A stretch of 64,000 bases of DNA from a virus: positions 1 through 64,000 of IMG/VR virus record IMGVR_UViG_3300029319_009270. One strand, 5' to 3'. The stretch's first letter is position 1; every line of letters starts with the position of its first letter. Shown here in pieces: positions 24,055-64,000 of this stretch. The notes beneath the pieces were generated by a model that saw only the letters and a program-made list of their open reading frames with translations, had not been told where the DNA came from and did not search any database. The position numbers and the translations under genes were made by a program.

Positions 24055-24475
24055 GAAGACCTTTATGATACCTGCTATTTTCAACTAATTCTGATGATGA
24101 TTGAATTTTACCACCACCTAGATTCCAAACTAGTTCTATTCCGTACTTTTTACAAGTCTGGATTTCAGGTGTGTTTGTATTTATCCTATCGCCACCGTTG
24201 CCGAAGTAATCTGGAACAATTACTTTCAACGATTCACACACTGTGTTGTCATCGTCAAGAGCTTCTACAACTTCACCTACACCTTGAATTGCTTTAATAA
24301 TTTCAGCTCTTTGCTCGAAAGGCATAAACACGTAACCTTTTTTTCTTTTTAGCCACGAATCTGAGTTACATATAACAATCACTCGCCCGTGTTTGGCTGC
24401 GTCTTGTATCATTCTAACATGCCCAACGTGAATTGGATCAAAGCCACCGCTAACTGCTATTGTTTTTTTGCGCAC
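24041..24475 (-). CDS. Cytidylyltransferase-family nucleotidyltransferase (TagD/RfaE-like)
   Basis: SGGFDPIHVGH (HxGH), NSD, NGGDR, QSSS. Confidence 0.85.
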   Translation of the reverse strand: MRKKTIAVSGGFDPIHVGHVRMIQDAAKHGRVIVICNSDSWLKRKKGYVFMPFEQRAEIIKAIQGVGEVVEALDDDNTVCESLKVIVPDYFGNGGDRINTNTPEIQTCKKYGIELVWNLGGGKIQSSSELVENSRYHKGLHEKK

Positions 24476-40580: not shown

Positions 40581-41273
40581 TTAACCTCTAATAACAGCCA
40601 AAATTCTATCTGCTCTTTCAATTCTTTTTTCTATTACATTCCAATTTAGTTCTTTCATCATAGCTGTCGTGTACAACTTTACATCTTTAAGGTAATCCCT
40701 ATAATAAGCATGTTGCCAAACATCCATTACGATCACCGGATAAAATCCAGCAGGAACTTGCTGAGAATGCAAGTCTATAACACAGTTCATGTATTTTTGT
40801 GTGTATGTATTTAAATATGTAACTGCCCAACCACATCTAGCAGCAGAACAGCATGCGATAAAATCTCTTTGCCAGTCATCAAAAGAACCAAAGTCCCTCT
40901 GCAACCTCATAAAAGAAAGAGAATCCATCGTTATTTCAGAATTAACATCGCTTATGTTTGCAAAATATAATTCATGGAGGTAAGCAGCATTCATATTGTA
41001 AGTCTCATCAATTTTTAATTGACGATAATCAGAATGATTTGAATTAGATTTTGATCGATCAACAGTGTCTAACTTTGCACTAATCTCATTAAAATCTTTA
41101 AGATACTGCTGATACAGTTTTTTGTGATTTTCTTTATTCTTGTTACTAAGAAATTCTGTGTTTAACTTAAATTGTTTTTCTTGAGCAATTAGCGCTTCAT
41201 CTATTCTATCTTCTTTCAATCCTAAGTTGTCTTTAATTAAAGATTTCACTTCATTATTTAACAAGTAATCCAT
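40581..41273 (-). CDS. Fe/Mn superoxide dismutase-family protein with an N-terminal extension
   Basis: H..LY..Y, LHELYF.N, DFGSF..W, GWA, DVWQHAYY.DY. Confidence 0.8.
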   Translation of the reverse strand: MDYLLNNEVKSLIKDNLGLKEDRIDEALIAQEKQFKLNTEFLSNKNKENHKKLYQQYLKDFNEISAKLDTVDRSKSNSNHSDYRQLKIDETYNMNAAYLHELYFANISDVNSEITMDSLSFMRLQRDFGSFDDWQRDFIACCSAARCGWAVTYLNTYTQKYMNCVIDLHSQQVPAGFYPVIVMDVWQHAYYRDYLKDVKLYTTAMMKELNWNVIEKRIERADRILAVIRG

Positions 41274-41552: not shown

Positions 41553-41978
41553 TTACGAATCAATCGTTCTTACTATAATTCCAGAGCTTTCTAGTATATC
41601 TATTCCCTTACTGTTAGGATATCTTTCTAAATATATGACTTCTTTAATTCCTGCATTAATAATTGCTTTGGCGCAAACATCACAAGGAGATAATGTCAAG
41701 TACATTTTTTTGTCTTTTGACGTATTGTAGTCACACTTAATTAATGCATTGATTTCAGCGTGTATAAAACCACTCATACCTACCTGATTTGAATCCCTTG
41801 TATTTGGACCGCCTTTTTGATCTCCATTATATCCAACAGCAAAAACCTGAGTGTTGTCTTCTGACACAATAACACAGCCGACTTTGTGTTTTGGGTCGAC
41901 TGATCTACAAGCTATCATTCTAGCAAATTGGGACCAAATATGGTCCCAACTAGGTCTTCCACTTCTGATTGCGTACAT
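41553..41978 (-). CDS. dCMP deaminase
   Basis: RPSWD, VGCVIV, GYNG, HAEINA, PCDVC. Confidence 0.9.
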   Translation of the reverse strand: MYAIRSGRPSWDHIWSQFARMIACRSVDPKHKVGCVIVSEDNTQVFAVGYNGDQKGGPNTRDSNQVGMSGFIHAEINALIKCDYNTSKDKKMYLTLSPCDVCAKAIINAGIKEVIYLERYPNSKGIDILESSGIIVRTIDS

Positions 41979-42846: not shown

Positions 42847-43422
42847 CTAAATGCGCATATAAGTATGGTGTTCCTGACATCTTGGCTCGTAAAGTTCTGA
42901 CCCACCTACTTGAATTTTTTTATTCGCATTACTTAAACTATGTTGTTGTTTTTTGTGTGTATATCTTGCATCTTTCTGGCATATCGGACAAACAGCTTTA
43001 CATTTTACAATTCTTGTACAAAAAGGCATTATTTTTTGTACTTCTTCAAAAGGCTCTCCTAAAAAATTTAAATCAATTGAAGCAATTACTACATCATAAC
43101 CCATTTTAAAAAGATCGATACACTCTTGTGCACTACCTTCTATTAAAAATAACTCATCTATAATTACACAGTCATAAAAGTCTGCGCCTAGATCATGAGA
43201 TTTCATAATCTCTATAATTTCTTTTCCTGTATTAACAAGATGAGCATCAAGCTTATTGAAATTGTGTGTAACTATTTCGCCCTTACCAGAATATCTGTCA
43301 TCCATTTTGGATTTAAAAGCAATCAAATTCTGTTTCCGGTATTCCCTTTTATCAGCTTCCATTAATAACTTTGTTGTCTTCGAACTGAACATTGGCCCAG
43401 TATACAATATCATTTCTGCCAT
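42847..43422 (-). CDS. tdk: Thymidine kinase
   Basis: GPMFSSKTT, DDRY, IDE, C..C, VGGSELYEPRC..H. Confidence 0.9.
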   Translation of the reverse strand: MAEMILYTGPMFSSKTTKLLMEADKREYRKQNLIAFKSKMDDRYSGKGEIVTHNFNKLDAHLVNTGKEIIEIMKSHDLGADFYDCVIIDELFLIEGSAQECIDLFKMGYDVVIASIDLNFLGEPFEEVQKIMPFCTRIVKCKAVCPICQKDARYTHKKQQHSLSNANKKIQVGGSELYEPRCQEHHTYMRI

Positions 43423-44402
43423 TACTTCAAACCCCACCACTTAACTGTTTTTTCTAATCCTTCCCAAAATCTTACTTTAGGCGTGTAACCAAAAGCTTCT
43501 TTTGCTCGAGTTATGTCTGCACATGTATGCATAACATCACCTGGTCGCCATGGTGCAGTATGAACTTTTGATCCGAAGTTATCTATAAAATAAGTTAATA
43601 TCTCTCCATTTGTTACAGAATCGCTACACGCAATATTAAAACATTGACCACGCCATCTTTCTTTTACCTTTGAGGAAAGTATATTTGCATCAACAACATT
43701 ATCAACATAACACATGTCTCTACTTTGAGTTCCATCACCATCCGATCGACAGCTAAGACCGTTTTTAGTAGCATGACACCAAGCAGAAACTGCAGTCGAA
43801 TAAGGGCTGTCTCCATACTGACCCGGCCCAAACACGTTAAAATATCGAAGGCAAACAATATCAGAATCATCATAAAGTGAACCATAAACTTTGGCGATAT
43901 CTTCACACGCAGATTTTTGCCAAGCATAAGGTGACTTAGGCTTTTTGATCGTTGATTCAGGCGTAGGCATAATATCTGCGCCACCATAAACTGACGATGA
44001 TGAAGAAAAAATAATTCTTGTTTTTCCAATTCTTGCTGCATCAAATAATTTAACTGTATTCATTAAGTTGACCTCAGTCGTCTCTGCTGGATTCTCAACT
44101 GAAAAACTTACTCGTGGTACCGCAGCAAGATGAAATATGCAGTCATAATTTCCTAATGCAACTTTTTCTAATATTCCGCTGAAAGCGAAATCACAATGAA
44201 AAAACCTAATAAAATCTCTGCCTGTTTCATCTATGCTGTGCATAATCTGTGCCATTGATTTTCTAATTTTATATTCTTCTAACGAATCAAAATTACCGCT
44301 AGATAAATCATCAACAATGTCAATCGTGTAATTTTCTTCATGTAGCTTCTTAACTAAATTAGAACCTATGAAACCGAAACCACCCGTTACTAAAACTTTC
44401 AA
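43422..44402 (-). CDS. NAD-dependent sugar epimerase/dehydratase
   Basis: TGGFGFIG, HLAA, SSSSVYG, YAWQK, RYFNVFGP. Confidence 0.9.
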   Translation of the reverse strand: MKVLVTGGFGFIGSNLVKKLHEENYTIDIVDDLSSGNFDSLEEYKIRKSMAQIMHSIDETGRDFIRFFHCDFAFSGILEKVALGNYDCIFHLAAVPRVSFSVENPAETTEVNLMNTVKLFDAARIGKTRIIFSSSSSVYGGADIMPTPESTIKKPKSPYAWQKSACEDIAKVYGSLYDDSDIVCLRYFNVFGPGQYGDSPYSTAVSAWCHATKNGLSCRSDGDGTQSRDMCYVDNVVDANILSSKVKERWRGQCFNIACSDSVTNGEILTYFIDNFGSKVHTAPWRPGDVMHTCADITRAKEAFGYTPKVRFWEGLEKTVKWWGLK

Positions 44403-44419: not shown

Positions 44420-45334
44420 CTAAATTATAATATGCGCAGAATTAAAGTTTATTCTTATTCTACATTTCAAATTATTTAATCTTAATTGATTGTATACTTT
44501 ACTACAAAGATAATACAAGAATTGAATATCGTATTTTAAAGTATCTTTTGTATTAGATGATCTAAAAACAAAATTACAGTCAAATATTCTATTTCTTACT
44601 GTGAACTGCCCAAAAGAAATACAAGTATCAGAGCTGTACACAAATCGTCTAGAAGCAGTATTTTCTTTTCTATTATGTTCATTATTCCCATTCAACTCAT
44701 TTTCTATTTTGTTCTGAACTGATTTTAATATGCTTTGATAATAATCTTTTTCGGGCTCGTATTCCAAAACTTTTAAATTAATATCTTTAAAATCGCAGTC
44801 GCTATAATAAGTTAGATTGATATGAGAAGCTTCTAAACTATCATTTGCTGCCGCGAACATATTTACATAACCAGCAACATCTTGAATGCTGATGGCTTCT
44901 ATCGTCATCAACTCTTTAATAACCGGTTCAACGTAAGAAAGCGTATTATCATCTCTAATAACCATCACGTTTGGATACAGTCTTAATTCCTCAGCTGCTT
45001 CTTCAAACAATCTATAAACTTTTTTAAGGGTTGTTATGGTTTGTATATCATCCCCTCTTTTGTTATAACGTCGTTCAATCTCGTCCCACGATGGTAAAAG
45101 TATAATAATACGATTGTTCAAGTTTTTAATTTCTGCATTAAGTCTTTCAACTTCAATAAAAGTATCGCGATCGTAAAGCTTTGCATAAACTAACATTGAC
45201 AAAGCAGATCGATCTTGGATATTCCAACGATACTTAGAAATTTTATGCAGCTGATTATAAAAAGAAGTCTTGCCAGACAAATCAGGGCCTTCTAAAATTA
45301 ACTGACTTGTTGGGAAACAATTTGTTTTATTCAT
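44420..45334 (-). CDS. dNMP-kinase-like domain fused to a truncated thymidylate-synthase-fold domain
   Basis: N-terminal EGPDLSGKT...QDRS; C-terminal SRR...C....QF.VR......FRSS......YD...SAH. Confidence 0.65.
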   Translation of the reverse strand: MNKTNCFPTSQLILEGPDLSGKTSFYNQLHKISKYRWNIQDRSALSMLVYAKLYDRDTFIEVERLNAEIKNLNNRIIILLPSWDEIERRYNKRGDDIQTITTLKKVYRLFEEAAEELRLYPNVMVIRDDNTLSYVEPVIKELMTIEAISIQDVAGYVNMFAAANDSLEASHINLTYYSDCDFKDINLKVLEYEPEKDYYQSILKSVQNKIENELNGNNEHNRKENTASRRFVYSSDTCISFGQFTVRNRIFDCNFVFRSSNTKDTLKYDIQFLYYLCSKVYNQLRLNNLKCRIRINFNSAHIII

Positions 45335-45351
45335 GTTACCTCCTAACACGT

Positions 45352-45408: not shown

Positions 45409-46074
45409 CTAGCTCACGTATTTCAATATTAATTCAGGCACTGAATAATTGAACAACTCAAAATCTTTTTGATACAGATTGTAAAAATATTTTGTAACAT
45501 CTGGCGAATATTCCCAGTCAGGTTGTATATCTTTATTAATTCTGGATTTATTCATGTGAGGTAGTTTTTGATTGCTGATGACGTCTTTGTCATTTAAAAA
45601 CTTTATAACATTTTCAATTTCTTCAAATTTAAAAACTTTTGTTTTATCATCAACAAAATAATGTTGAGGCACCCAGTGATTATCGTCGAAACCCATTCCT
45701 AATTTAGGAACAAGATCTGTAAAAACTGCGTGCATATAATGAATAATCCCATGAGGCGTTATTGAGTTTCTAGTAATCGTGGTTGTCTCTAGCTTTTCGT
45801 AACCTTTAATTACATAAAATATTTCTGACAACATTCTTTCTATGGGATTTCTAACGATCGTAAATGTAAATTCAATGTCTAGATCTGAATTCATTTTATT
45901 ATACACGTCTTTCGTATGATGAGGATGCGCCTTAAAATAGTTTGACTCTTTGGTAAAAAACCTTTTCTCATCTTTTTTCCAACCTGCACTTTGTATTAGT
46001 TTTCTTATAGAAGTACCTCCAGTTTTAGGTATGTGCACAAACTGTATTGTTCTGTTGTCTTTATAGAATATCAT
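45409..46074 (-). CDS. Sulfotransferase (Sulfotransfer_2/Stf0-like)
   Basis: FVHIPKTGGTS (5'-PSB), VRNPIER..S (3'-PB), HWVPQ, Y.KDFELFNY. Confidence 0.8.
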   Translation of the reverse strand: MIFYKDNRTIQFVHIPKTGGTSIRKLIQSAGWKKDEKRFFTKESNYFKAHPHHTKDVYNKMNSDLDIEFTFTIVRNPIERMLSEIFYVIKGYEKLETTTITRNSITPHGIIHYMHAVFTDLVPKLGMGFDDNHWVPQHYFVDDKTKVFKFEEIENVIKFLNDKDVISNQKLPHMNKSRINKDIQPDWEYSPDVTKYFYNLYQKDFELFNYSVPELILKYVS

Positions 46075-49000
46075 ACTACAAGCGGCCTAACTTTTGCTAC
46101 GCTAGTGCTAGCACCCCAGTTTGGATCATTGTGTGCTGTACACAGCCATATCGAGTAAGGTTGCATTTCTCTAGGGGCACCACCCCACATTCTAAGCCAG
46201 CCCGTATTACTTTCATGATCAGTAATTTTAATTCTATAAAATGTTTTCTTATTTTTTGTAGTCTTTTTAATCATCTCAACAACACAATACCAGGCAACAC
46301 CTTTTTCGTTAGACTCCATATTAAGAACTGACTTAACTCCGCTTTTCATGATTTTTTCCATTAATTCTTCGGGAAATGCCAGATCATCTCTTGTCGCAGA
46401 ACACATGTCCTGATACATTTGCAATTTTTCAATACGATTCCAATCATCTTGGTCTTTTGTTTCACTGATCAGTATAGGAAGCAAATCAGGTGCATTTTCT
46501 TTTTTTGCTTTCCTTACAGTCATTCCCCAGCGACTCTTTTTAAGTTTTTCATAATTGTCGATAATAATACTGTGTAACTGCTTGTGATGATCGATAGTAC
46601 CATCCCACATCTCTTCTAAACAATCAAGTGCTTCAACTTTACAAAGAGCAGAAAAACCTGTTTTGTTTAATTTACTATGATACCACTTTCCATCTTCATT
46701 AAATAACATGCTATCAACCGATGTATAAGGTCGGTTAGCCATGATTTCTTTTACAGCATTCTTTCCTAAACCTTTGATTGATGTCAAGGGTGGAATAAAA
46801 GCTTGCTTCTGCTCTGACCACGACCATGCTAGACCTGATTCATTGATGTCAGGTGTTGAAACTTCATAGCCCATTGCTTTAATTTCTGAAATTGCTTTTG
46901 AAAGATTTTTAGGATTGTTATTCTCAGATTCTAGAATAGTTCCTAACCAATCTGTTTCATAGTATGTATGAAGCCATGCAGCATAGTAAGATCCAATTGC
47001 ATATGCCACAGCATGAGACTTATTAAATCCATAAACTGAAAAGAATTCAATTCTTTGCCACAATTCTTCGCTTACATGTTCGGGTACGCCATTAATATCT
47101 TTTGCACCCTTAATAAACTTTTGTTTAGCTGCTTCTCGTTCATCACCTTTTTTACCCATTGTATCAAGAGACTTTTTAACCAACGTCTTTCGAAGCTTAT
47201 CAGATTCAGCAGGTGTAAACCCTCCAAGCTTTTGGGCTAAAATCATGAACTGTTCTTGAAATGTTACGTGCCCAAATGTTGGACCAAGAACCTCCTTGAT
47301 GATTGGGTGAGGATATTCAATCTCACTGGCTCGAGCTTTATCCTTTACATATTTCAAGTGAACATTCGCACGAAGAGGGCCAGGGCGATATATCGCTGTT
47401 AACGCTCCAAGCTCTTCAATAGAAGTAGGTTTAGCGTCCTCGCAGAATCGCCGAGCACCTTCTGCAGTAAACTGGAATACACCTACTTTTCTTCTTTGAT
47501 GATAAACATGTTCCCAAACCTTCATATCATCTTGTTCAACGTAACGACAATTTAAATGATCATCAAACCAATCTCGAATCTCGAGAAACGTTGGTTCTTT
47601 ACCGTTTTCTTTTGTTAAAATACGTTTGATGCAATTTTCTACGTCTTTTAATAACGTAAGGCCAAGAAAGTCAAACTTAATAAATCCGTTATCCTCAAGA
47701 TTACGAAAGTTCATGCCTTCTGTCCAGGGAGTTTGCAACTCACCCCGAACACCAATTATAGGCATACCTCGTGCCAGATCATCAGCTGGTCCAATAATCA
47801 CACCACCTGCATGACGCCCAACTGATCTATTCTGCATAAAGAGAGCTTCGATATGATCCTTTACTTTCGGATATTTTTCCATAAACTCTCGATATTTTTT
47901 TGAATACTGCATACAGTCAGAATGCTTGAGCACAAAAACAGACTTTTCAGTATTTTCATCTCTTGCTTGTGCCATTACCTCATCTTGTAGGGGCCCAGTC
48001 ATTTTGTTAACTTCAGCAAAGTCTATGCCGTAAAATTTAGATATATCCTTTACAAGCGACTTAAGTTTGAGCGTGTTAAAATTAGACACAGGAATGACAG
48101 CCTCATCACCGTAAAGATCTCGAGCGGCGTTAATTAATGCGTCACGATCACCAGCATCAGAATCAATATCAGGCCAGGACGTCCTATGTCTACCTAGAAA
48201 ACGTTCCCAAAGCAAATCATATTTCAAAGGATCAATTTGAGTAATCCCTAGTAAGTAGTTGACAAGAGATCCACCACCGGAGCCTCGTGCAGCACCAAAT
48301 AAGGTGTGATCGGCTGCTTTGTGAAACACTTCATACATTACAAGGAAGTAATTTTCAAATCCAAGAAATTTAATATCTTCAAGTTCGTGTTTAGCTCTTT
48401 CAACGTATTCTTTTTTCGTATGCAAATTTTCTTTAATCATTGCATCTTTGACTTTCTTTGCTAGCTGTTGAAAAGCAGTTTCATTAGGCTTGTTAAAATC
48501 AGGTAGTTTAACACTAGTGTCAATCCAGCAATCATCACATTTTTCCCACGCAATATCATATGTTCTTTCGATTGAATCTTTAACAGTTTGTTCATAACCT
48601 TCATAAGTGTCTTTATATTCATCATAGTGACAAACAAACTCATCCCACATTTGTTGTGCATTTTTAGGATACAATTCACACTTTAAATCTTCAAACTCAG
48701 GCAGTGGTGAAGGATCATTACCCATCCAGCCTAACTTCTTATAAAGCTCTCTTGCTTCCCACTTATCAGGAGAATAGTAATGTGAGTCTGGTGTAGAAAT
48801 ACAATTAATTCCTGTTTGCGCTGAATGGCGCAGCAAATGGTGATTTACAAGGTGTTGTTGTTTCAATCTGTTGAATTGCAGTTCAAGATAAAAATTTTCT
48901 TCACCCACTGCGTCAACAAAGCGATCAGAAAGATACATTAGTTCCTGTTGTATCTCCTCATCAGATTTTTTCATTGCATTTCCTCTCATAATCCTATTAG

Positions 49001-49583
49001 AGTAAATACCTCCTAAACACGCAGTTGAAACATTCAATCCACGCCCATGTTGTTTAAGTAAGTCAAAATCAATCCTTGGGTAACGATAGAATCCTTCTGT
49101 ATAAGCTCTTTTAATTAAAGTAAACAGGTTACCTAATCCTTCACGATTTTGTGCTGTTACAACAAGATGGTACCTTCTTTTCCACTCGTCTTTGCCTACA
49201 ACGACAGTCTTTGTTTCTTCTTCATTTTCAATAACATGCCCGCCTTCTTCTTCTTCTTTTATTGCCTTTTGTTTGGCAGCAGCTCTATCTAACTTTGCTT
49301 GCTCGTAATCTGTTTTCCAGTCACTAAGTGAAGGAACAAAATAAAATTCGCAACCATAAATTTGACGATACTTTATTCCTTTCTTTTGCAGTTTTGTTGC
49401 GTGTTTGTGCGCGTGTGCTAACCCGGAACCGTTGCCGTGATCAGTTAAACCCCAAGCGTCCATTCCATTTTCTATAACAAAATCAATATGATCAGAAGGA
49501 TATCCTAATCCATCAAACACAGAAAAACCTGTGTGTCCGTGTAATCCAACAAATCTTTTAGGGGGCTTTATTAATAAACTCAT
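46071..49583 (-). CDS. dnaE: DNA polymerase III alpha subunit (PHP plus C-family polymerase)
   Basis: LHGHT.FS..DG, TDHG, RGSGGGSLV, PDIDSD, HAGGV, KFDFLGL, YGFNKSHA. Confidence 0.95.
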   Translation of the reverse strand: MSLLIKPPKRFVGLHGHTGFSVFDGLGYPSDHIDFVIENGMDAWGLTDHGNGSGLAHAHKHATKLQKKGIKYRQIYGCEFYFVPSLSDWKTDYEQAKLDRAAAKQKAIKEEEEGGHVIENEEETKTVVVGKDEWKRRYHLVVTAQNREGLGNLFTLIKRAYTEGFYRYPRIDFDLLKQHGRGLNVSTACLGGIYSNRIMRGNAMKKSDEEIQQELMYLSDRFVDAVGEENFYLELQFNRLKQQHLVNHHLLRHSAQTGINCISTPDSHYYSPDKWEARELYKKLGWMGNDPSPLPEFEDLKCELYPKNAQQMWDEFVCHYDEYKDTYEGYEQTVKDSIERTYDIAWEKCDDCWIDTSVKLPDFNKPNETAFQQLAKKVKDAMIKENLHTKKEYVERAKHELEDIKFLGFENYFLVMYEVFHKAADHTLFGAARGSGGGSLVNYLLGITQIDPLKYDLLWERFLGRHRTSWPDIDSDAGDRDALINAARDLYGDEAVIPVSNFNTLKLKSLVKDISKFYGIDFAEVNKMTGPLQDEVMAQARDENTEKSVFVLKHSDCMQYSKKYREFMEKYPKVKDHIEALFMQNRSVGRHAGGVIIGPADDLARGMPIIGVRGELQTPWTEGMNFRNLEDNGFIKFDFLGLTLLKDVENCIKRILTKENGKEPTFLEIRDWFDDHLNCRYVEQDDMKVWEHVYHQRRKVGVFQFTAEGARRFCEDAKPTSIEELGALTAIYRPGPLRANVHLKYVKDKARASEIEYPHPIIKEVLGPTFGHVTFQEQFMILAQKLGGFTPAESDKLRKTLVKKSLDTMGKKGDEREAAKQKFIKGAKDINGVPEHVSEELWQRIEFFSVYGFNKSHAVAYAIGSYYAAWLHTYYETDWLGTILESENNNPKNLSKAISEIKAMGYEVSTPDINESGLAWSWSEQKQAFIPPLTSIKGLGKNAVKEIMANRPYTSVDSMLFNEDGKWYHSKLNKTGFSALCKVEALDCLEEMWDGTIDHHKQLHSIIIDNYEKLKKSRWGMTVRKAKKENAPDLLPILISETKDQDDWNRIEKLQMYQDMCSATRDDLAFPEELMEKIMKSGVKSVLNMESNEKGVAWYCVVEMIKKTTKNKKTFYRIKITDHESNTGWLRMWGGAPREMQPYSIWLCTAHNDPNWGASTSVAKVRPLVV

Positions 49584-49673: not shown

Positions 49674-50669
49674 TTAAATACTAGTCGGTGAGTTTGAAAA
49701 TTTTATTTTTGTAATTGTTGGACACGACTCAGTTATTCTATCAGTAATATAAGTCGTCATTTCTGTCAAAGAATCAAATACTTTATGTTCATTATGATGC
49801 AATTTAAATAATTTAGCTGATTCGATGACATCTGTTTTTGATAAAACAATATGCGTTGTCCCAGTAAAATTAATTGCTTTTATCAGCTTGTTGAGATTGA
49901 GCCAGTTAACCTTTCTTCTTCTACCCGTTGTAACACCAAACTCATGACCAAGATCTGCAATTTTCAGTAATTCAGGATCATTAAGTAAACTTTCAGGAAA
50001 GTCCGGATCAACTCCTGACCTAGTATCATAAACTTTCGCAGCTCCCCATATATTCCTTATCATCTGAATTGGAAATCCTAAGGAGCATGCTCCGTGTGGT
50101 AAGGTTGTACTAGAAGTAACATAAGGATAATTACCAAAATCTACATCCAGCCATATTCCTTGCGCACCTTCACAAAGAACTTTTCCGGAAAGATTCTCAT
50201 CCCACATCATCCAGTAGGGTATAACGTCTTTAGCAAGAACCCCCTTGCGAGCCATTTTATCAGCGTAGCAAGGGGCTATTCCCTTTGATGTGGTTCCAAG
50301 TTTTTTTGCTAACTTTTCCGCATCTTCATCAATGTGAAGTCTGCTTACAATATGCGCTCTGGGTGAAACCTTAACTTTTGATATATCAAAACCGTTTTTC
50401 TCCAAATATCTAATTTCCGCCATAAGTGAATTCTCATGAACAACGCAACCTGGCCCTATGACTGATGTTACACCATGAAAAACACCACTTGGTACTAAAT
50501 GGGTTTTGTATTTTTTACCATCGACAAAAACAGTGTGTCCTGCATTGTTACCACCAGCCCAACGACAAACAAAATCATATTCACCACTACCGGCTAATTC
50601 TGATGTAATTTTTCCTTTTGCCTCATCGCCCCAAGCTAATCCGCAAACAATATCTGCGTATTCAATCAT
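49674..50669 (-). CDS. purA: Adenylosuccinate synthetase (short form)
   Basis: WGDEAKGK, GGNNAGHT, GTT.KGI.P.Y.DK, EGAQG, YPYVTSS, GVTTGRRR. Confidence 0.9.
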   Translation of the reverse strand: MIEYADIVCGLAWGDEAKGKITSELAGSGEYDFVCRWAGGNNAGHTVFVDGKKYKTHLVPSGVFHGVTSVIGPGCVVHENSLMAEIRYLEKNGFDISKVKVSPRAHIVSRLHIDEDAEKLAKKLGTTSKGIAPCYADKMARKGVLAKDVIPYWMMWDENLSGKVLCEGAQGIWLDVDFGNYPYVTSSTTLPHGACSLGFPIQMIRNIWGAAKVYDTRSGVDPDFPESLLNDPELLKIADLGHEFGVTTGRRRKVNWLNLNKLIKAINFTGTTHIVLSKTDVIESAKLFKLHHNEHKVFDSLTEMTTYITDRITESCPTITKIKFSNSPTSI

Positions 50670-55376: not shown

Positions 55377-56462
55377 CTAAACAAATACAGAGTTAAACTG
55401 TTGTGTGCATCTAACGAATGTAGCACATTTGCTCAACTGTTTTAAGGTGGGCGCTCCTACGTAAGTACAAGTAGATCTAACCCCACCTAAAATATCTTTG
55501 ATTGTATTTTTGACTTTTCCTTTATAGGGTATTTCTACTGTCCGACCTTCAGAAGATCGGTATTCTGCCACGCCGCCTGAATGTTTTTGCATTGCAGTAT
55601 CAGAGCTCATACCGTAAAACTGTATGTAGTGTTTTTCTTCATAAACTGGACCTAGCTTATCACCATAAATAGAAAGCTCTATCTCACCTGTTTTAAAACA
55701 CTTAGTTATAATTTCACCACCCCCTTCGTCATGACCGGCCAACATTCCGCCTAACATTACAAAGTCAGCACCGGCTGCAAATGCTTTGGCCACGTCTCCC
55801 GGGCAAGTGCATCCACCATCTGCGATGATATGACCGCCTAAACCGTGCGCTGCATCAGCACATTCAATAACAGCTGAAAGCTGTGGGTATCCAACGCCAG
55901 TTTGAATTCTTGTAGTGCATACAGAACCCGGGCCAATACCAACCTTAACAACATCTGCTCCTGCGAGAATAAGCTCTTGTGTCATGTCTGCAGTGACAAC
56001 ATTACCAGCAATGATGTTGCAATGAGGAAAATCACTTCTGACTAGTTTAACAAAATCAGTAAAGTGTTCTGAGTATCCATTCGCTATATCAATACAAATC
56101 CAACTTAGATTACACGTTGAAATTATTTCTTTTGCTTTCTTGTACTCTTCTACGTTTGTGCCCACACTAATAGCAAGATGATCTGTGTCTATTTGTCCGA
56201 ACTGACCATACCAGTCCTCAGGTGTATTTTGCTTTGTTATGCAGGTAAACATCTCACATAACGCTAGCTCGTGTGCTATATTAAACGTGCCTACCCCGTC
56301 CATGTTCGCAGCCATAATTGGGATCCCAGTCCAGAATTTGCCGCTGTTTCTAAACGTATACTTTCGACGCAAGTCGACTTCTTTCCTAGATCGGAGGATA
56401 CTGCGTTTTGGACGAATTAGTACATCTTTATAATCTAATTTTATTTCTTGTTCAATTCTCAC
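55377..56462 (-). CDS. guaC: GMP reductase (E. coli type)
   Basis: [55 protein letters not shown]. Confidence 0.95.
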
Positions 56463-56473
56463 AATTTTTCTCC

Positions 56474-56812
56474 TTAATTTTTTTCAACAATTGCTTTCAA
56501 TGGAAAACCAGACTGTCTAGCATAATCAATGACTTGAGCAGATTTTGTATCAGCAATCTCTTTGCTGAAAGGGCCGCCTGCTATACCCTTCCCTTTTTCA
56601 TGAACAGAGCTAGCTATATTCCACGCTGTATCAACATCTTTATAAAAAAAAGTAATTAACACTATAACAACAAATTGAAAATGTGTATAGTCATCATTTA
56701 ACAAGACAACGTTGTATTTACTAGGTTTTACTACTTTATTCTTTTCTTTTTGTCTATCAAGTAGATCTACACCGCTATCACAATCTTTGCTTTCTTTCTT
56801 TTTTTGAGTCAT
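56474..56812 (-). CDS. clpS: ClpS N-degron adaptor
   Basis: [27 protein letters not shown]; promoter TTGAAA-N17-TATACT (56829-56857). Confidence 0.9.
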
Positions 56813-58432: not shown

Positions 58433-59410
58433 CTAATAATACTGTGTCAAATCTATATTTTTACCTTTTGCTTCTTCAAGATATCTTAAAGGATTGTAAT
58501 TGTCTGTTTTTGTTATGCTTTCAAAAGACATTCTAATACCTGTTTGTAGATCAATCTTTGGTGACCACCCAGATACATTTCTAAACTTCCAAGATGATAG
58601 CATATGATTACCAAGGTAGTCTGTTTTAGAGTGCCATCTGATTACATTCTCAAGGTCTAGATCAGTAACTTGTTGAATCAACTTTACAATCTCACCTGTC
58701 ATCAAAGGAGTTTCAGCTGCAACATTCCAATCCTGGTACCAAAGATTTTGATTTATTGCTGTTAAAACTGCATCGCAATAATCGTTGACATGCATGTAGT
58801 CTTTAATTTTTGAAGGATCCAGGAACATATCAATCTGTGTCTTTCCGTTAATAGCACCATAGATTGATTTTGCAATAAGAGAATTCATATCTCCAATTCC
58901 TCCATAAGCGAATAGAGGTCGAACAATCATCCATTTTTCAACTTGACTTTTAATAATGTCCTCTGCACAGAGTTTTTGACAGCCATATAAAGTGTGTGGG
59001 CCTCTATCTGATCTTTCTTCAATTTGCTTGCTTTGGTAGTTCTTTGTATCATATATCACTGTCGTACCCATGTAGCAGACAGGTATGTCTAGCTTTCTTG
59101 CAGCCCGGCAAATTGTATACGTACCTTCAACGTTGGTTAAGGTAGATTCTTTAGCATTAAGTGCTACAACGTCTGTACCGACAACTGCAGCATTATGTAT
59201 TATAACATCAATTTTTTCACTTTTGAAAAAGTTTACCCAATGATCAATTGAATTTCCATGAACACAAGGTTCTTTTTTCTCGGACCATTTTGTAAAATAA
59301 TTATCATATTTTGACACGCCTTCATTGACAACTTCTATATCAAATAACTTAGATCTGGCTATTAGATTTCGGCCGATGAAGCCTTTTTCTCCGGTGATGA
59401 ATAATTTCAT
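58433..59410 (-). CDS. NAD-dependent epimerase/dehydratase (extended SDR)
   Basis: TGEKGFIG, HNAA, YGCQK; promoter ATGTAA-N17-TATAAT (59431-59459). Confidence 0.85.
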   Translation of the reverse strand: MKLFITGEKGFIGRNLIARSKLFDIEVVNEGVSKYDNYFTKWSEKKEPCVHGNSIDHWVNFFKSEKIDVIIHNAAVVGTDVVALNAKESTLTNVEGTYTICRAARKLDIPVCYMGTTVIYDTKNYQSKQIEERSDRGPHTLYGCQKLCAEDIIKSQVEKWMIVRPLFAYGGIGDMNSLIAKSIYGAINGKTQIDMFLDPSKIKDYMHVNDYCDAVLTAINQNLWYQDWNVAAETPLMTGEIVKLIQQVTDLDLENVIRWHSKTDYLGNHMLSSWKFRNVSGWSPKIDLQTGIRMSFESITKTDNYNPLRYLEEAKGKNIDLTQYY

Positions 59411-59453
59411 TTTTTACTCCTTTTTGATATATTATACAAAGCATTATTGAATA

Positions 59454-59900
59454 TTACATATGTGTATGATAACTTTTGTGACGCTCATACATAATATCAG
59501 TTTTTACATGATAGTGATCAATACCTAATGCATGCCCTGTTTCATGAACAACAACTTCATAATCAGTCACACCTTCGTGTGAAAGCTTTATGACTGCATT
59601 ATCTAAATACCGATAAGTCCAATTGAGTTCAGTGTGTCCGTAAGTACGTACTGTATCAATAGTATCATCAGCAGGTGCAAATTTAATAACATACTTTTCT
59701 GGTTTGCCATCACAATGTGTTCTTGTAGAAATTTCACCAAATTCATGACCTCTTGATTTCCAATATTCGATAGCATCTTGAACGTACTCAATTTTAATAT
59801 TAGAATTTTCACAATAAACAACATCGGGTGCTACACGCCAGGTTGCAAAGTATTCATAGTCTGCAGCAAATGTTGAAGCAATCAAAGCTAGTAGAAACAT
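59454..59900 (-). CDS. Secreted matrixin-like zinc metalloprotease (paralogue of 8427..8936)
   Basis: Signal MFLLALIASTFA; AIEYW...G; HETGHALGIDH...IM. Confidence 0.75.
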   Translation of the reverse strand: MFLLALIASTFAADYEYFATWRVAPDVVYCENSNIKIEYVQDAIEYWKSRGHEFGEISTRTHCDGKPEKYVIKFAPADDTIDTVRTYGHTELNWTYRYLDNAVIKLSHEGVTDYEVVVHETGHALGIDHYHVKTDIMYERHKSYHTHM

Positions 59901-59937
59901 AAAAACTCCTTTTATTTTTATTATAAAAGGAGTTTTT
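59901..59937. promoter_or_regulatory. 15 bp perfect inverted repeat overlapping the SD and -10 box of the protease gene
   Basis: AAAAACTCCTTTTAT-N7-ATAAAAGGAGTTTTT. Confidence 0.7.
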
Positions 59938-59963
59938 TAAATTTGCACGTGTTTTAAATAAAT

Positions 59964-60929
59964 TTAATATCTTCCATGATATCTTCGTCGATACAAACTA
60001 CCTCGACTAAGACCTTCATTAATATCTGTATCGGGTCCTACCATACCACTGGGTGTCTCCGGTTGTCCAGAGGGTGGTACATCTCGAGATGTAACAGACT
60101 CAGGGTTTGACTTGAATTCAATATCATCATCTTTTGTACTAGCAACTTTTGCAGAACCTGACGCGGATGGAATCAATTTACTAGCATAAGTTATAGCTCC
60201 AGCGTCTAACAACATCTGAAGAACCCCGTCGTGAAGCATAGAAGCAGCCGTAGTTGTACCGCATTCTGAACTGAAGACGCGCAGATATCCTCTCTGTTGA
60301 CTGACAAAACTACCTTCGCGCTGGGACGCTCGAACTCTTTCGCCTATCGAAACCAATGCATTTTTATCACCATCTAAAGTGGCAATTGCTGATGCTGCTA
60401 AAACCTCTTTATATTCACCTGCAGCTTCAGGATAAACATCACAATAAAGTTCTGAATCCTCGATAAATTCTAAGATTGCATTTATTGGCGGTTCAGGTTC
60501 AGGTTCTTTAACTTGTGGTTTGAAAGTTTTTCCAACGGACTTACTTACGGGTCCTGAAATTATTCTATAACGATCACCCACTTTTGCATAAGTGTACGGG
60601 TCTCCTCTTCCACTGATACCATAATCAGATCCCGCCTTTCCGAATTCAGGTTTAACGCCTATCTCAGGTGCCCAATATAAATCCCAGTCTAACCAAACGA
60701 AATAATCGCCTTTTGGAACAGGGATATTCATTCTTTTAAGAATTTCAGCAGCTTCGGAAGCGGGAACTTTTACTGCTTTTGGATTGTCTGCTGCTTTCGC
60801 TTTGTCTAAGATGTCTCCTTCTCGAGGATCTAAGTTTTTACCCTTAGGATCAGCGTCAGGTATAGCATGTTCTTCTTCATTTAATAGTGATTCTATCAAT
60901 AAATTCAAATTTCTTTTAGTGATTCTCAT
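59964..60929 (-). CDS. Leader-tagged protein with a basic C-terminal peptide
   Basis: MRITKRNLNLLIESLLNEE; C-terminus INEGLSRGSLYRRRYHGRY; ATACTTA at 60962-60968. Confidence 0.7.
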   Translation of the reverse strand: MRITKRNLNLLIESLLNEEEHAIPDADPKGKNLDPREGDILDKAKAADNPKAVKVPASEAAEILKRMNIPVPKGDYFVWLDWDLYWAPEIGVKPEFGKAGSDYGISGRGDPYTYAKVGDRYRIISGPVSKSVGKTFKPQVKEPEPEPPINAILEFIEDSELYCDVYPEAAGEYKEVLAASAIATLDGDKNALVSIGERVRASQREGSFVSQQRGYLRVFSSECGTTTAASMLHDGVLQMLLDAGAITYASKLIPSASGSAKVASTKDDDIEFKSNPESVTSRDVPPSGQPETPSGMVGPDTDINEGLSRGSLYRRRYHGRY

Positions 60930-60980
60930 ATTAGTTAAACTCCCTGATATAAATCTATGTATAAGTATTAGTTAAACAAT

Positions 60981-61013
60981 AAAAAATCCCAACAATTGTT
61001 GGGATCCTTTTTT
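60981..61013. terminator. Probable bidirectional intrinsic terminator
   Basis: 20 bp palindrome ATCCCAACAATTGTTGGGAT flanked by A- and T-runs. Confidence 0.75.
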
Positions 61014-61029
61014 AATCGTGAAAAAAGAT

Positions 61030-61479
61030 TTATTCTATTTCACCTTCATATCTTAATTCAAGCAAACGTTCAGATGCAGTACAATCTTGCAAGTAAGCAT
61101 CTAATTGTTCCAACGAAGTGCATACTGCAATTCCCGATGCTGCTAACATGAGATTAAATTGTGCACCGGGTGGTAAACCATCGCAAAAATAAACAATTGG
61201 CTTTTCTAAACAATTCATATAACCTGCTTCAAAAATCGACCCCATATCTTTGTTTCTTGTATTGCATAGCATCCAGTCACATTCATGAAGATGCCTAATA
61301 TTTCCTGAAAATATTTGATCTTGTATAGACTCATTAGCATCATTATCACAAAGATTTTCATCCTTCGGTGAAAAATAAGAAATGCCGTGTTTTTCAAAAA
61401 CTGATTTAATATTTTCTACTTCTTCCAACCACTCAGGTGAAAACCACCCGCTTGCTAAATAAACTTTTCCTAAACTCAT
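61030..61479 (-). CDS. Nucleoside 2-deoxyribosyltransferase / nucleotide N-glycosidase family protein
   Basis: VYLASGWFS, FSPK, IF..N, DMGSIFEAGY, FNLML. Confidence 0.85.
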   Translation of the reverse strand: MSLGKVYLASGWFSPEWLEEVENIKSVFEKHGISYFSPKDENLCDNDANESIQDQIFSGNIRHLHECDWMLCNTRNKDMGSIFEAGYMNCLEKPIVYFCDGLPPGAQFNLMLAASGIAVCTSLEQLDAYLQDCTASERLLELRYEGEIE

Positions 61480-62468
61480 TATTCTCTCCCCATAAATTGA
61501 TTGTATTGATTTGTTAATTGATTAATCTCTTCTAATGTTTCTTCCCAAAGCTGTGTAAAAATTGTTGGTGTACCCGGGACATGATTTTTACCATTAATAT
61601 CCTCACGACGAGACTGATAAATTGTATCATTGGGATGATATTCAAACTTATCGTTCTTTGGTTCTGGCCAATATAGGTTTGTACCTCGTGATGTTTCGCC
61701 ACCTTTACCATCAGGTACGCGAAATGTTTTAATATAGTGCATATCTGGTTTATTAAAATTAATACGCGCGGTTGCTTCAGGCAGAACTTTGATTACTTCT
61801 CTTGCCATGTACGCGGCAAGTAAATTATCAGCTGCCGGTTGAATTTGCATGTCTTGACGTTGAGCGATAAAACCTAACAGATCTTTTAAGTTAAGACGCA
61901 TTAGATAAAATGAAGTCATGCACTTTGGTAAAATCATTCTTGCATCCATCATTGATACAATCTTGGAATCTGTCATGTCAGCATATAATTCCTTAGATTC
62001 GCGAACTAACTTTTTCCAGCGCCTATCAAACTCGGGTGTGTTTTGAACAGCTTCAGGAATTACTGCGGGATCATCCCTTAAGTCACGATCACCAGTACAC
62101 TGTGCGGCAAAACTACCAGCACGATGTCGTATGATGTGTGTAACCTCTTGAAATGATAAGCCACTTAACTTAAATGTAAACCCTAAACATTCCATAGGTG
62201 TTGGAAGTGCACGAAAACAAAGAACATCCTCGAGATTTGCAGACAGTTCTTTTAAACTAGCAGTAGCTGGATTTGTCTCATCGTGATGATCAGCCCATGT
62301 TGCTTTTACATATTGCCAAGCAACATTAAGCGCTTGAGATCTAGTTGGATGATCAACTAGTTCAACTTTCAAATGTGCAAGATTGTTATAAAATGCTGTG
62401 TTGGGTTCTTGACCAAACTTAAGTTCCATTGGCAGATCAACAGGTTTCAAATCATTATTCTGTGGCAT
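61479..62468 (-). CDS. Divergent ThyX-fold flavoprotein
   Basis: PME, THIIRHRAGSFAAQCTGDRD, DARMILP, QR...Q; promoter TTGTAA-N17-TATAAT (62501-62529). Confidence 0.75.
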   Translation of the reverse strand: MPQNNDLKPVDLPMELKFGQEPNTAFYNNLAHLKVELVDHPTRSQALNVAWQYVKATWADHHDETNPATASLKELSANLEDVLCFRALPTPMECLGFTFKLSGLSFQEVTHIIRHRAGSFAAQCTGDRDLRDDPAVIPEAVQNTPEFDRRWKKLVRESKELYADMTDSKIVSMMDARMILPKCMTSFYLMRLNLKDLLGFIAQRQDMQIQPAADNLLAAYMAREVIKVLPEATARINFNKPDMHYIKTFRVPDGKGGETSRGTNLYWPEPKNDKFEYHPNDTIYQSRREDINGKNHVPGTPTIFTQLWEETLEEINQLTNQYNQFMGRE

Positions 62469-62532
62469 GCAAAGCCTCCTTGTTTAAAGTTTACTTATTT
62501 ATTATAAATAAAAATACTAATCTTTACAACTT

Positions 62533-63453
62533 TTATTTTATTATTAACTTATTAGGATTCGTATAGACAAATGTATTATCACGACCATCAACTTCTAAAT
62601 TATAATTTTTTCTAGGATAATAACAAACTATTCCGTGCTTTGCATAATCCACAATATGTTTGGGAGCATCGTCAATTGCAGCAACTATTTTATCTTTATC
62701 ATAGTACTTTGACCTAGCACACCATCGAAATTTTTCTGTGCTAAAGTCAACTGCATCAAACGGAATACTGTTATTTTTTAGCCAATAAAACGTATCATAA
62801 AAACATTTTAAATTTTCTTTAGGTCTAGCTGTCAATAGCTGGATCCAGTAGCCTTGCTTTTTTAAATTATTTAGCATCTCAATCGATCCATCAACGACAT
62901 CTAAATTCCTAAACCCACCCTTATTAACAAATTCGTAAAATACAGCTTCAGGATTTAAATCTAATTTATTCAATGCAGTTATAAAATAGTATTCTTTACT
63001 ATAGACATCAATTTCTAAATTGTAATTTACACCTAGCCAATCTGCAAAACCTTGTCTAAATTCAGTCAAAACATCATCCATATCAACAATAACGACAGGT
63101 TGAGACCCATCCCAACTATCTTGTGTCTTGTGAAGAAAATTTAAATATGAATCTTTATCATAAAAAGCTTCAATAAAATTTTCACTAGATATTTGATTAA
63201 TATTAAGGATAGCTAAGATATATCGAAATATATCCACAGATTCATAGAGCATTTTTGTTTTGTCTACAGAATCTGTTTGTGCATGATGATCTTTAAAATC
63301 AACAGATTGCATTAGCTCACTAACTTCTGAATGTAAGCAAAGTGATAAAGTTTTTGTAATATCTACAATTTCTCTATCACTTAAGTTTTTTTCGCTTAGA
63401 TTATATAAGCTAGAATTGAATTTTGCTTGTAAATTGAACAGGTTTTTCAGCAT
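62533..63453 (-). CDS. All-alpha NTP pyrophosphatase (MazG/dUTPase-like) fused to a HAD 5'(3')-deoxyribonucleotidase
   Basis: EVSEL...K.H...ESVD; VDMDDVL, LTAR, IDD.P. Confidence 0.8.
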   Translation of the reverse strand: MLKNLFNLQAKFNSSLYNLSEKNLSDREIVDITKTLSLCLHSEVSELMQSVDFKDHHAQTDSVDKTKMLYESVDIFRYILAILNINQISSENFIEAFYDKDSYLNFLHKTQDSWDGSQPVVIVDMDDVLTEFRQGFADWLGVNYNLEIDVYSKEYYFITALNKLDLNPEAVFYEFVNKGGFRNLDVVDGSIEMLNNLKKQGYWIQLLTARPKENLKCFYDTFYWLKNNSIPFDAVDFSTEKFRWCARSKYYDKDKIVAAIDDAPKHIVDYAKHGIVCYYPRKNYNLEVDGRDNTFVYTNPNKLIIK

Positions 63454-63679
63454 TTTTGACCTCACTAATTTTGCCTCCTGCAATTGCAAAGGCGTCTGTT
63501 AAACAATCAGGCTCTATTTTTTCAAAAAATATTGAGCTATGATCTGATAAGCGAATAATTCCTGATAAAAAATCTTTATTTATATTTGTAATAATACACT
63601 GCAATTCATCCTTATTACAAAAACTAAAAGAATTAATTATTTTATCATTACTAGCAGTCAAAATTAGTTTGTGCATCAA
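63410..63679 (-). CDS. Hypothetical protein
   Basis: Operon packing. Confidence 0.45.
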   Translation of the reverse strand: MMHKLILTASNDKIINSFSFCNKDELQCIITNINKDFLSGIIRLSDHSSIFFEKIEPDCLTDAFAIAGGKISEVKNAEKPVQFTSKIQF

Positions 63680-64000
63680 TAACCATTTTTAAGTCTATCA
63701 TTAATTATTATGTCTTTATTCAAATATGCCTTAAAAAATTCATCTGAGTCTATGTTTAGATGTATCATTAACGAAAAGAAATAGTTAAAAGCATCAACCA
63801 TCTCTTCTAAAAATTCTTCCTTATTAAATGTTCCACCAACATCAGTTTGACGATGAGACTTCCAATTTTTCAAGTGTTGGAGAGCTTCAAACATCTCCTC
63901 GACGCCGTGCAATGCTAAGTCTCTTAGATATTTTTGACCATCTTTTGATGCAGGATTAATTTCTTTTGGTTGCGCTTTCGGAACTGTTTTACTTAAATTA
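63676..64000 (-). CDS. All-alpha dUTPase/MazG-like NTP pyrophosphatase, partial (start lies beyond the window)
   Basis: EEMFEA..HLKNWKSH, EEMVDAFNY; frame is open to the window end. Confidence 0.8.
   Translation of the reverse strand, partial: NLSKTVPKAQPKEINPASKDGQKYLRDLALHGVEEMFEALQHLKNWKSHRQTDVGGTFNKEEFLEEMVDAFNYFFSLMIHLNIDSDEFFKAYLNKDIIINDRLKNGY

Follow-up and report, generated by a model that had tools for sequence, protein, structure and literature searches.

A deep viral clade of ThyX-like flavoenzymes linked to nucleoside deoxyribosyltransferase and 5′-deoxynucleotidase genes: a candidate pyrimidine-modifying module

A gene for a ThyX-like flavoenzyme and one for a nucleoside 2′-deoxyribosyltransferase (NDT) stand side by side near the end of the window, the 64,000-nucleotide stretch that forms the first 64 kb of the viral record IMGVR_UViG_3300029319_009270. 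The record has 90.5 kb and is judged ~37% complete, and relatives of 200–236 kb are judged 70%–77% complete; the record thus represents only part of a large marine phage. No close cultured relative was found. The window has a GC content of 30%–39%. On the minus strand, in the order of transcription, there are genes for an HhH-GPD protein, a 190-amino acid (aa) unknown, and an Fpg/Nei protein, these three lying past the end of the window, then for a second all-α NTP pyrophosphatase (PPase), a dUTPase_2/NT5C fusion, the ThyX-like protein, and NDT, followed by a 321-aa unknown, a matrixin-like protease, a short-chain dehydrogenase/reductase (SDR), a 510-aa unknown, ClpS, and GMP reductase. An earlier, sequence-only reading had placed the genes of this module correctly; all of them are on the minus strand, and the two genes that it had put before the ThyX-like gene, a fusion of a pyrophosphatase with a haloacid dehalogenase (HAD) domain and another pyrophosphatase, are both found upstream.

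The ThyX-like gene (61479–62468, minus strand) encodes 329 aa that match the Pfam family Thy1 (PF02511) at 67.8 bits (cut-off 24.8); an N-terminal segment, MPxNNxL, is conserved, and the C-terminus is extended by ~90 aa. With TIGR02170, the NCBIfam equivalog model for thyX, the protein scores 43 bits, under the cut-off of 87.9; the canonical ThyX, or flavin-dependent thymidylate synthase (FDTS), of the same phage (10831–11604, plus strand) reaches 170.9 bits. The AlphaFold2 model of the ThyX-like protein (pLDDT 90.5) superposes on PolB and on the ThyX of Mycobacterium tuberculosis (Mtb), Corynebacterium glutamicum, and Thermotoga maritima (Tm) at 15%–21% identity; in Foldseek, PolB (4p5b) and Mtb ThyX are the best matches, with TM-scores of 0.65–0.79 to ThyX structures. 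The alignment by hhalign of the ThyX-like family with the family of the phage's own canonical ThyX stands at 98.5%, the ThyX-like family profile finds ThyX structures in the PDB at E 1e-10, and a search of the ESM Atlas returned viral Thy1 clusters only. Single-sequence queries of the PDB gave no match for the ThyX-like protein, the dUTPase_2/NT5C fusion, or the second PPase. The stop codon of the ThyX-like gene and the start codon of NDT share one base (TAATG), with GGGAGAG preceding the overlap, as expected from the translational coupling that had been proposed for the two genes.

The residue roles used here are carried over from Tm and Mtb ThyX by alignments at 15%–20% identity, and the counts are taken over 102 unique ThyX-like sequences. 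The flavin-binding motif RHR is kept, with Arg114 and Arg116 invariant and His115 in 94 of the 102 sequences, and the FAD site retains its Asn and Lys/Arg. Arg177 (Tm Arg147, Mtb Arg172, the phosphate Arg) and Arg204 (Tm Arg174, Mtb Arg199, the uracil-activating Arg) are both invariant. The window protein has, however, RHRAGSFAAQCTGDR in place of the canonical RHRTWSYNEISRRY. At the position of Tm Ser88, seven residues after RHR, it has Cys124, a position occupied in the family by Cys (76), Val (15), Thr (5), Gly (5), or Ala (1), with Val-His, Thr-His, and Gly as the non-Cys variants. Tm Arg90 corresponds to Gly126 (Gly, Ala, or Ser across the family) and Tm Tyr91 to the invariant Asp127, which is followed by Arg/Lys128. 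The position of Mtb Arg87, a phosphate ligand, is hydrophobic (Phe, Leu, or Met), and that of Mtb Glu92 is an invariant His111. New invariant or near-invariant residues are Asp206, Ile209-Gln-Pro, and Asp214-Asn215 and, in the C-terminal extension, Tyr266, Pro268, and Arg288. The family signature is TH[LI][IL]R[HY]Rxx[ST]F[SA]Ax[C/other]x[GAS]D[RK]. The motifs singled out in the sequence-only reading (RHRAGSFAAQCTG in the ThyX-like protein and RHRTWSYNEISRRY in the canonical one) are exact, and its changes of Ser to Cys and of Arg to Gly both hold; the list was incomplete, since the next residue, Tyr in ThyX, has become an invariant Asp as well. In ThyX, Ser88, Arg90, and Tyr91 are conserved, and the T. 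maritima Ala mutants slow the methylene-transfer step up to >100-fold (PMC8316439, PMC11940539). In the Mtb enzyme, Arg107 and Arg199 hold N3-deprotonated uracil by its Watson–Crick edge, and the phosphate is held by Arg87 and Arg172 (PMC12004180). Thus, in the ThyX-like family, a cation is swapped for an anion at the base edge and lid, and one of the two phosphate ligands is lost.

The paralogue belongs to a deep clade confined almost entirely to viruses. In a tree that has long branches and was made by a quick search, with 49 canonical sequences of viral ThyX and 46 ThyX-like ones, the latter form one side of a branch of 4.25 changes/site (SH-aLRT 99.8). Marine metagenomes yield 999 ThyX-like clusters at 90% identity, the best 120 of which are 81%–95% identical, and 116 representatives at 50% identity match the protein at E ≤ 1e-10; the metagenomes containing close sequences are all marine or seawater. 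IMG/VR has 38 close loci and at least 257 more distant ones. The gene arrangement recurs in the 38 close and in >80 distant viral contigs and is therefore more than chance. The carriers include phages of 40–57 kb with PolA, ligase, SNF2 helicase, and primase, and also DnaE phages of Firmicutes. Among 50,697 cultured-phage records, the clade occurs only in Geobacillus phage GR1 (OK896991.1; protein UDY80709.1), at 47% identity. A scan of 185,579 genomes, one for each prokaryote species, with one peptide pattern, a search of limited sensitivity, gave a single match, in a phage-like contig of a Clostridia metagenome-assembled genome. Within the marine group, the paralogue is 75%–91% identical between contigs and the adjoining genes are mostly 40%–60% identical; at the deeper marine split, the paralogue diverges about as much as canonical ThyX (59% vs. 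62%). We found no account of the clade in the literature on ThyX paralogues or on ThyX-like enzymes in phage DNA modification.

The NDT gene (61030–61479, minus strand) matches PF05014 at 59.7 bits, and its model has a pLDDT of 90.6. The Foldseek matches are true NDTs (6evs, 1s2d, 7o62, and the Lactobacillus leichmannii NDT) at E 1e-9 to 1e-7, with the nucleotide glycosidases MilB, BcmB, and DNPH1 much farther, at ~1e-4. Tyr7, Asp78, Glu84, and Asn109 are conserved in 93–98 of 98 sequences; from the L. leichmannii NDT, we take Glu84 to be the catalytic nucleophile and Tyr7, the Asp, and the Asn to be sugar ligands. Unusually, 93 of the 98 sequences end in Glu. Classical NDTs, such as that of L. 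leichmannii, bind the base with the help of the C-terminal carboxylate, and the terminal Glu suggests a similar involvement here. The window protein is a nucleoside 2′-deoxyribosyltransferase, nearer to the transferases than to the nucleotide N-glycosidases, with the transfer itself predicted from the fold and these residues.

Upstream of the ThyX-like gene, the fusion (62533–63489, minus strand) joins a dUTPase_2 half (PF08761, residues 14–119, 28.7 bits, cut-off 22.9), an all-α PPase with the motifs ExxE...ExxD, to an NT5C half (PF06941, residues 131–293, 32.1 bits, cut-off 24.8) with the HAD motif DMDDV (DxDxV/T). The second all-α PPase starts from genome position 64173, past the end of the window, and runs to 63676 on the minus strand (phrog_12184, E 6e-13); it has 165 aa counted from the first TTG, and the true start may be later. 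Its ExxE...ExxD motifs are visible, its scores with PF08761 are 16.9–20.4 bits, under the cut-off of 22.9, and its homologues in actinophages are annotated as dUTPase or dCTP pyrophosphatase. In other phages of the clade, the nucleotidase is an HD protein that matches the YfbR-like 5′-deoxynucleotidases. Phage PBS1 has an NT5C-like protein as its dTMP phosphatase, and PhiR1-37 has a dTTP pyrophosphatase; enzymes of these kinds keep T out in phages with dU-DNA (PMC12697855). Following this precedent, it is a reasonable reading that the fused PPase–NT5C would degrade a canonical pyrimidine dNTP, its candidate substrate, to the nucleoside.

How specific these partners are was assessed over a span of ~7–8 kb at 120 ThyX-like loci and at 78 control loci with canonical ThyX only, retrieved by the same procedure. 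Open reading frames were called in all loci and clustered by BLAST, and hidden Markov models were built from the recurrent neighbor families; the scans were run with the narrower alignments, the broader ones being too diverse. The statistics are based on metagenomic contigs and simple calls of reading frames. The NDT subfamily is present at 113 of the 120 ThyX-like loci and at one of the 78 controls (a weak match, 24.5 bits); the Fisher p of 2e-45 overstates independence, since the loci share kinship. Only two canonical-ThyX loci had a strong NDT match, and both also carry a ThyX-like gene. A 5′-deoxynucleotidase occurs at 101/120 loci (HD/YfbR-like in 74, NT5C in 27) versus 0/78, an all-α NTP-PPase at 66/120 versus 0/78, a small DUF6378-like protein at 43/120 versus 3/78, and a dCMP deaminase at 25/120 versus 10/78. 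A YorR-like kinase accompanies the ThyX-like gene at 29 loci and none of the controls; the long form of this kinase, with a ThyA-like tail, is found only in the marine lineage (eight loci), and small phages have the kinase alone. Of the seven ThyX-like loci without NDT, six are interrupted by a contig end, and at the 52 loci with full flanks NDT is present in 51 and the nucleotidase in 50. The NDT is found in all 20 clusters at 60% identity and in all 36 at 70%, at +1 or at −2 to −4 of the ThyX-like gene, and nine loci have kinase–NDT fusions. The presence of NDT in every cluster, the varied gene order, and the recruitment of nucleotidases from two unrelated folds argue for selection on function and not for mere co-inheritance.

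In several lineages, the paralogue occurs together with a true thymidylate synthase (TS). Four genomes have a canonical ThyX that retains S-x-R-Y. At one further locus, the canonical ThyX lies two genes upstream of the paralogue and, in five small phages, it lies ≤3 kb away. Complete G009 (46 kb) has a canonical ThyX with the paralogue, and G010 (57 kb, 95% complete) has ThyA with it. The paralogue is therefore probably not a spare thymidylate synthase.

Three further genes of the window could act with the module. The TK1-type thymidine kinase (TK; 42847–43440, minus strand; PF00265, 124.7 bits) is a candidate for the re-phosphorylation of NDT products. The dCMP deaminase (41553–41978, minus strand; PF00383, 78.6 bits) belongs to a family that is a module member in the 25 other loci, at +1 or +2 of the ThyX-like gene. 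The third gene (44420–45349, minus strand) joins a YorR-like P-loop kinase to a divergent, truncated ThyA-like domain. Its kinase profile matches SPβ YorR (2axp) at E 1.8e-10, with deoxynucleoside and thymidylate kinases as the next matches, and the kinase shares a BLAST cluster with those adjoining the ThyX-like gene in 21 loci and with the P-loop protein of GR1. Its C-terminal domain (~150 aa) has the motifs SRRF...TCIS...RSSD in the order of ThyA; it is without ~100 N-terminal residues and has no counterpart to the N-terminal half of ThyA. Its profile matches T4 dCMP hydroxymethylase at E 0.0027, in an alignment that includes both Cys148, the catalytic Cys, and Asp179, the residue that specifies cytosine. 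PF00303 matches neither this domain nor anything else in the genome, and hhalign with phage ThyA is in the correct register at a probability of just 1.7%. In the kinase–TS fusion described before, the likeness of the second half to ThyA is weakly supported.

We favor the reading in which the paralogue would be a ThyX-derived, flavin-dependent enzyme that modifies C5 of a pyrimidine and gives a product other than dTMP, within a purge-and-recycle cassette with NDT and the 5′-deoxynucleotidase; to this we give a probability of about 0.42. It is favored because the lid and base edge are rebuilt, because true TS genes co-occur, and because the partners are exclusive; with the Ser/Arg/Tyr lid replaced by Cys/Gly/Asp, a non-dTMP product is to be expected. 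In such a pathway, the all-α NTP pyrophosphatases would cut a canonical pyrimidine dNTP to the dNMP, and the NT5C domain (the HD enzyme in other phages) would take off the phosphate. The NDT would transfer the deoxyribose to another pyrimidine base, most simply uracil, and TK or the YorR-like kinase would re-phosphorylate the nucleoside. The ThyX-like enzyme would then modify C5, and the product, possibly dUMP or dCMP with a 5-hydroxymethyl, 5-hydroxy, or 5-methyl group, would end up in the phage DNA. The folds, motif changes, gene linkage, and co-occurrence with canonical TS are observed directly; the product, each substrate, and the order in which the steps follow are what we infer. The parts could be wired in three ways. 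A kinase (TK, the YorR-like one, or one of the host) could join the nucleotidase and NDT in feeding the paralogue, with any dNMP turned into its pyrimidine dNMP substrate; the PPase and nucleotidase could destroy the canonical competitor, with NDT rescuing its deoxyribose; or the modified nucleotide could be stripped down to the free base. The first two combined, with a product other than dTMP, make up the reading we favor.

The substrate could be either pyrimidine. The reversal of charge at the base edge (Arg to a small residue, Tyr to Asp, and the new Asp206), together with a Cys nearest to C6, would suit cytosine, in analogy to the ThyA-family dCMP hydroxymethylases, which have made an Asn-to-Asp switch. 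Arg204, however, which is invariant, suits uracil, and so do the neighboring genes for dUTPase and dCMP deaminase. The chemistry might be a non-reductive hydroxymethylation, a hydroxylation with flavin and O2, or the methylation of a new substrate. The second is possible because there are ThyA homologues that have turned into synthases of 5-hydroxy-dCMP and use a flavin (PMC13326640).

Several observations weigh against a non-dTMP product destined for DNA. The Cys at the Tm Ser88 position varies in the family and is therefore not an obligatory nucleophile. Plain methylation of dUMP is possible, since the uracil-activating Arg204 is invariant, and the dUTPase-type, dCMP deaminase, and TK neighbors are classical helpers of ordinary dTMP synthesis. 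In complete G008 and in GR1, the paralogue is the sole TS-like gene, as would suit a plain TS. Where the genome also encodes a canonical ThyX, this speaks against the full replacement of T. GR1 carries integrase-like genes, and pre-replicative base replacement is not known to us from any temperate phage. Finally, inheritance of one cassette could account for part of the linkage.

Another reading takes the paralogue as an ordinary FDTS (dUMP to dTMP), divergent in sequence and set in a salvage cassette, where nucleotidase, NDT, and kinase would re-base host deoxynucleotides (dN + uracil to dU to dUMP) and tilt the pool towards T for an AT-rich genome. We consider it unlikely, while granting it real weight. 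The FAD motif, Arg177, and Arg204 are retained, the helper enzymes just named accompany the paralogue, GR1 and G008 have no other TS-like gene, the window itself is AT-rich, and a list of the pyrimidine genes common in tailed archaeal viruses has MazG, 5′-nucleotidase, NDT, and ThyX together (PMC8651126); yet Arg90 and Tyr91, the mutants of which are strongly impaired (PMC8316439), are lost. Moreover, several small, complete phage genomes have a canonical ThyX or ThyA beside the paralogue, the canonical-ThyX loci do not carry the NDT/nucleotidase set, and a dCMP deaminase already yields dUMP, with no need for a detour. The presence of the paralogue both beside a canonical TS and as the sole TS would be accounted for if it methylated deoxyuridine (or uracil) instead of dUMP, with TK re-entering the product as dTMP; nucleotidase, NDT, and the ThyX-like enzyme would then all work on substrates without a phosphate. 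We know of no thymidylate-type synthase acting at the nucleoside level, and we regard this as improbable. The three near-invariant partners, it is true, all handle nucleosides, a kinase is present in just about a quarter of the modules, and T. maritima FDTS can bind deoxyuridine (5ioq, among the structural matches). Of the phosphate arginines, Mtb Arg87 is lost, with Glu92 becoming His (PMC12004180), but Arg177 is invariant and the newly conserved Arg/Lys128, Arg131, and Arg288 could bind a phosphate; nor would a nucleoside substrate explain the small residue for Arg and the Asp for Tyr at the base edge.

Stripping to a free base would follow the logic of MilA/MilB: the ThyX-like enzyme would modify a nucleotide, and the nucleotidase and NDT would release a free 5-substituted pyrimidine, either for base exchange into DNA by the neighboring glycosylase-like enzymes or as a metabolite. 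Pairs of TS-like and NDT-fold proteins do make free 5-hydroxymethylcytosine in the mildiomycin and bacimethrin pathways, MilB and BcmB are among the fold matches, and Fpg/Nei and HhH-GPD genes adjoin the module in marine lineages. The window NDT, however, resembles true nucleoside transferases far more than it does MilB, BcmB, or DNPH1 and retains the Asn109 and the C-terminal carboxylate typical of transferases, the glycosylases are missing from non-marine lineages, and no pyrimidine DNA transglycosylase is known to us; such a route is very improbable. As for the proposal from which this work started, a neofunctionalised ThyX acting with NDT, pyrophosphatases, and a nucleotidase, it is strengthened by the separate clade, the lost residues, the linkage, and the co-occurrence with TS, a strengthening that does not extend to the modified base.

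It is a tentative proposal of ours that the clade may hold the first ThyX-fold enzyme making a non-thymine 5-substituted pyrimidine deoxynucleotide for viral DNA and, together with NDT and deoxynucleotidase as obligatory partners, a new pathway of pre-replicative base replacement. To our knowledge, every phage enzyme that pre-modifies pyrimidine nucleotides is a relative of ThyA, be it a hydroxymethylase, a methylase, or one of the 5-hydroxy-dCMP synthases reported recently; a counterpart derived from ThyX would have been invented independently, with flavin chemistry. Hundreds of uncultured phages would then have the pathway, among them abundant marine phages with large genomes, and very common marine viruses would have unrecognized DNA modifications affecting restriction, CRISPR, and sequencing-based surveys. 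Even in a sober reading, the rarely split "re-basing" trio of deoxynucleotidase, NDT, and dedicated TS-like enzyme would be a viral pathway not described before. The clean sequence signature and a cultured representative, GR1, make the question accessible to routine assays.

The surroundings of the module vary with the lineage. The extended SDR (58433–59410, minus strand; Pfam Epimerase PF01370, 97 bits) resembles nucleotide-sugar epimerases and dehydratases, with remote PDB matches to 4,6-dehydratases and epimerases. It corresponds to the NAD-dependent epimerase noted before as lying nearby; two unrelated genes (the 321-aa unknown and the matrixin-like protease) separate it from the NDT. Its linkage to the module is confined to the marine lineage (at 26 of the 38 close loci), and it is a lineage-specific neighbor outside the universal core. 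Directly upstream of the nucleotide module, genome positions 64277–66069 hold the Fpg/Nei glycosylase, the conserved 190-aa protein (starting MNIFVLDKNPVIAAKYHCNKHVVKM), for which no family match was found, and the small HhH-GPD glycosylase. Fpg adjoins the ThyX-like and NDT genes also in diverged marine lineages (three loci). A protein of ~100 aa with a weak DUF6378 match and the motif HIDTWHDIAGY (L057, 17–322, and 42 other loci) is encoded directly upstream of the ThyX-like gene in many PolA-type phages. GR1 has two NDT genes, a class Ia ribonucleotide reductase, TK, a pair of amidoligase and γ-glutamylcyclotransferase, and, directly upstream of the ThyX-like gene, a nitroreductase-like flavin reductase.

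A sugar step in some lineages is hinted at by a separate glycosyltransferase within the module of the GR1 clade and by P0142, a metagenomic protein of 551 aa with a GT-A-like domain (weak Glycos_transf_2 match, HDNDLY) at the N-terminus of a ThyX-like protein; no relatives of P0142 were found in IMG/VR. A general link to glycosylation was rejected, a module glycosyltransferase occurring only in the GR1 clade (five loci) and the marine relatives having no consistent one; a glycan island, distant from the module, is present in G003 only among these relatives. In the window, a phosphomannomutase-like HAD protein (23236–24084), a GalE/GDP-mannose-dehydratase-like SDR (43422–44402), and a sulfotransferase (45409–46074), all on the minus strand, are scattered among replication genes, and there is no glycosyltransferase in the 90-kb record. 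The DnaE-type polymerase is at 46071–49583. A shortened adenylosuccinate synthetase (331 aa, with an internal deletion; 49674–50669, minus strand) lies close to GMP reductase (55377–56462, minus strand), and together they could convert G into A nucleotides in this AT-rich phage. A Z-genome (MazZ/PurZ) was rejected, the synthetase matching PurA at E 3e-55 and PurZ at 2e-16 to 3e-8. Further genes on the minus strand encode a GroEL-type chaperonin (27896–29485), an Fe/Mn superoxide dismutase (40581–41273), and the ClpS adaptor (56474–56812).

With canonical ThyX, the paralogue shares the fold, RHR, the Asn/Lys of the FAD site, the equivalents of Arg147 and Arg174, and the Thy1 match; it differs in its own deep clade, in Cys/small/Asp for Ser88/Arg90/Tyr91, in the loss of Mtb Arg87, in the extra N-terminal and ~90-aa C-terminal segments, and in its near-invariant partners, NDT and deoxynucleotidase. 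PolB of polyoxin biosynthesis (4p5a, 4p5b), the best structural match, is a neofunctionalised ThyX paralogue beside a normal ThyX, but it is a C5-methylase of UMP and dUMP in a bacterial antibiotic cluster without NDT or nucleotidase partners, and its identity to the paralogue is 18%–19%. The phages with dU- or hmU-DNA that exclude thymidine (PBS1 and DSS3_VP1 with the dTMP phosphatase Dtm, PhiR1-37 with the dTTP pyrophosphatase Dtt; PMC12697855) have an NT5C-like deoxynucleotidase and an NTP pyrophosphatase, counterparts of which are fused here and would remove a canonical pyrimidine nucleotide; those phages are without any TS, whereas the source phage has a canonical ThyX and TK. In MilA/MilB and BcmA/BcmB, a TS-like enzyme (a ThyA-like hydroxymethylase) is also genetically coupled to an NDT-fold protein, there an N-glycosidase; here, the NDT resembles nucleoside transferases, its partner has the ThyX fold, and the context is viral DNA replication. 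The pre-replicative cytosine replacement of the T4 type (gp56 dCTPase, gp42 dCMP hydroxymethylase, gp1 dNMP kinase, cd, td, and tk) has the same functional cast, with an all-α NTP-PPase, a TS-like modifier, a P-loop kinase, dCMP deaminase, a separate true TS, and TK, but its modifier has the ThyA fold and not the ThyX fold, and it has neither NDT nor dNMP nucleotidase. The "deoxycytidine pathway" to thymidylate that B. Weiss reportedly described in E. coli is said to run through a pyrophosphatase, the 5′-deoxynucleotidase YfbR, a deaminase, Tdk, and ThyA. It would likewise place a dNTP pyrophosphatase, an HD 5′-deoxynucleotidase, a nucleoside step, and a thymidine kinase before the TS; its nucleoside step, however, is that of cytidine deaminase and not of an NDT, and it is a cellular bypass and not a conserved viral operon.

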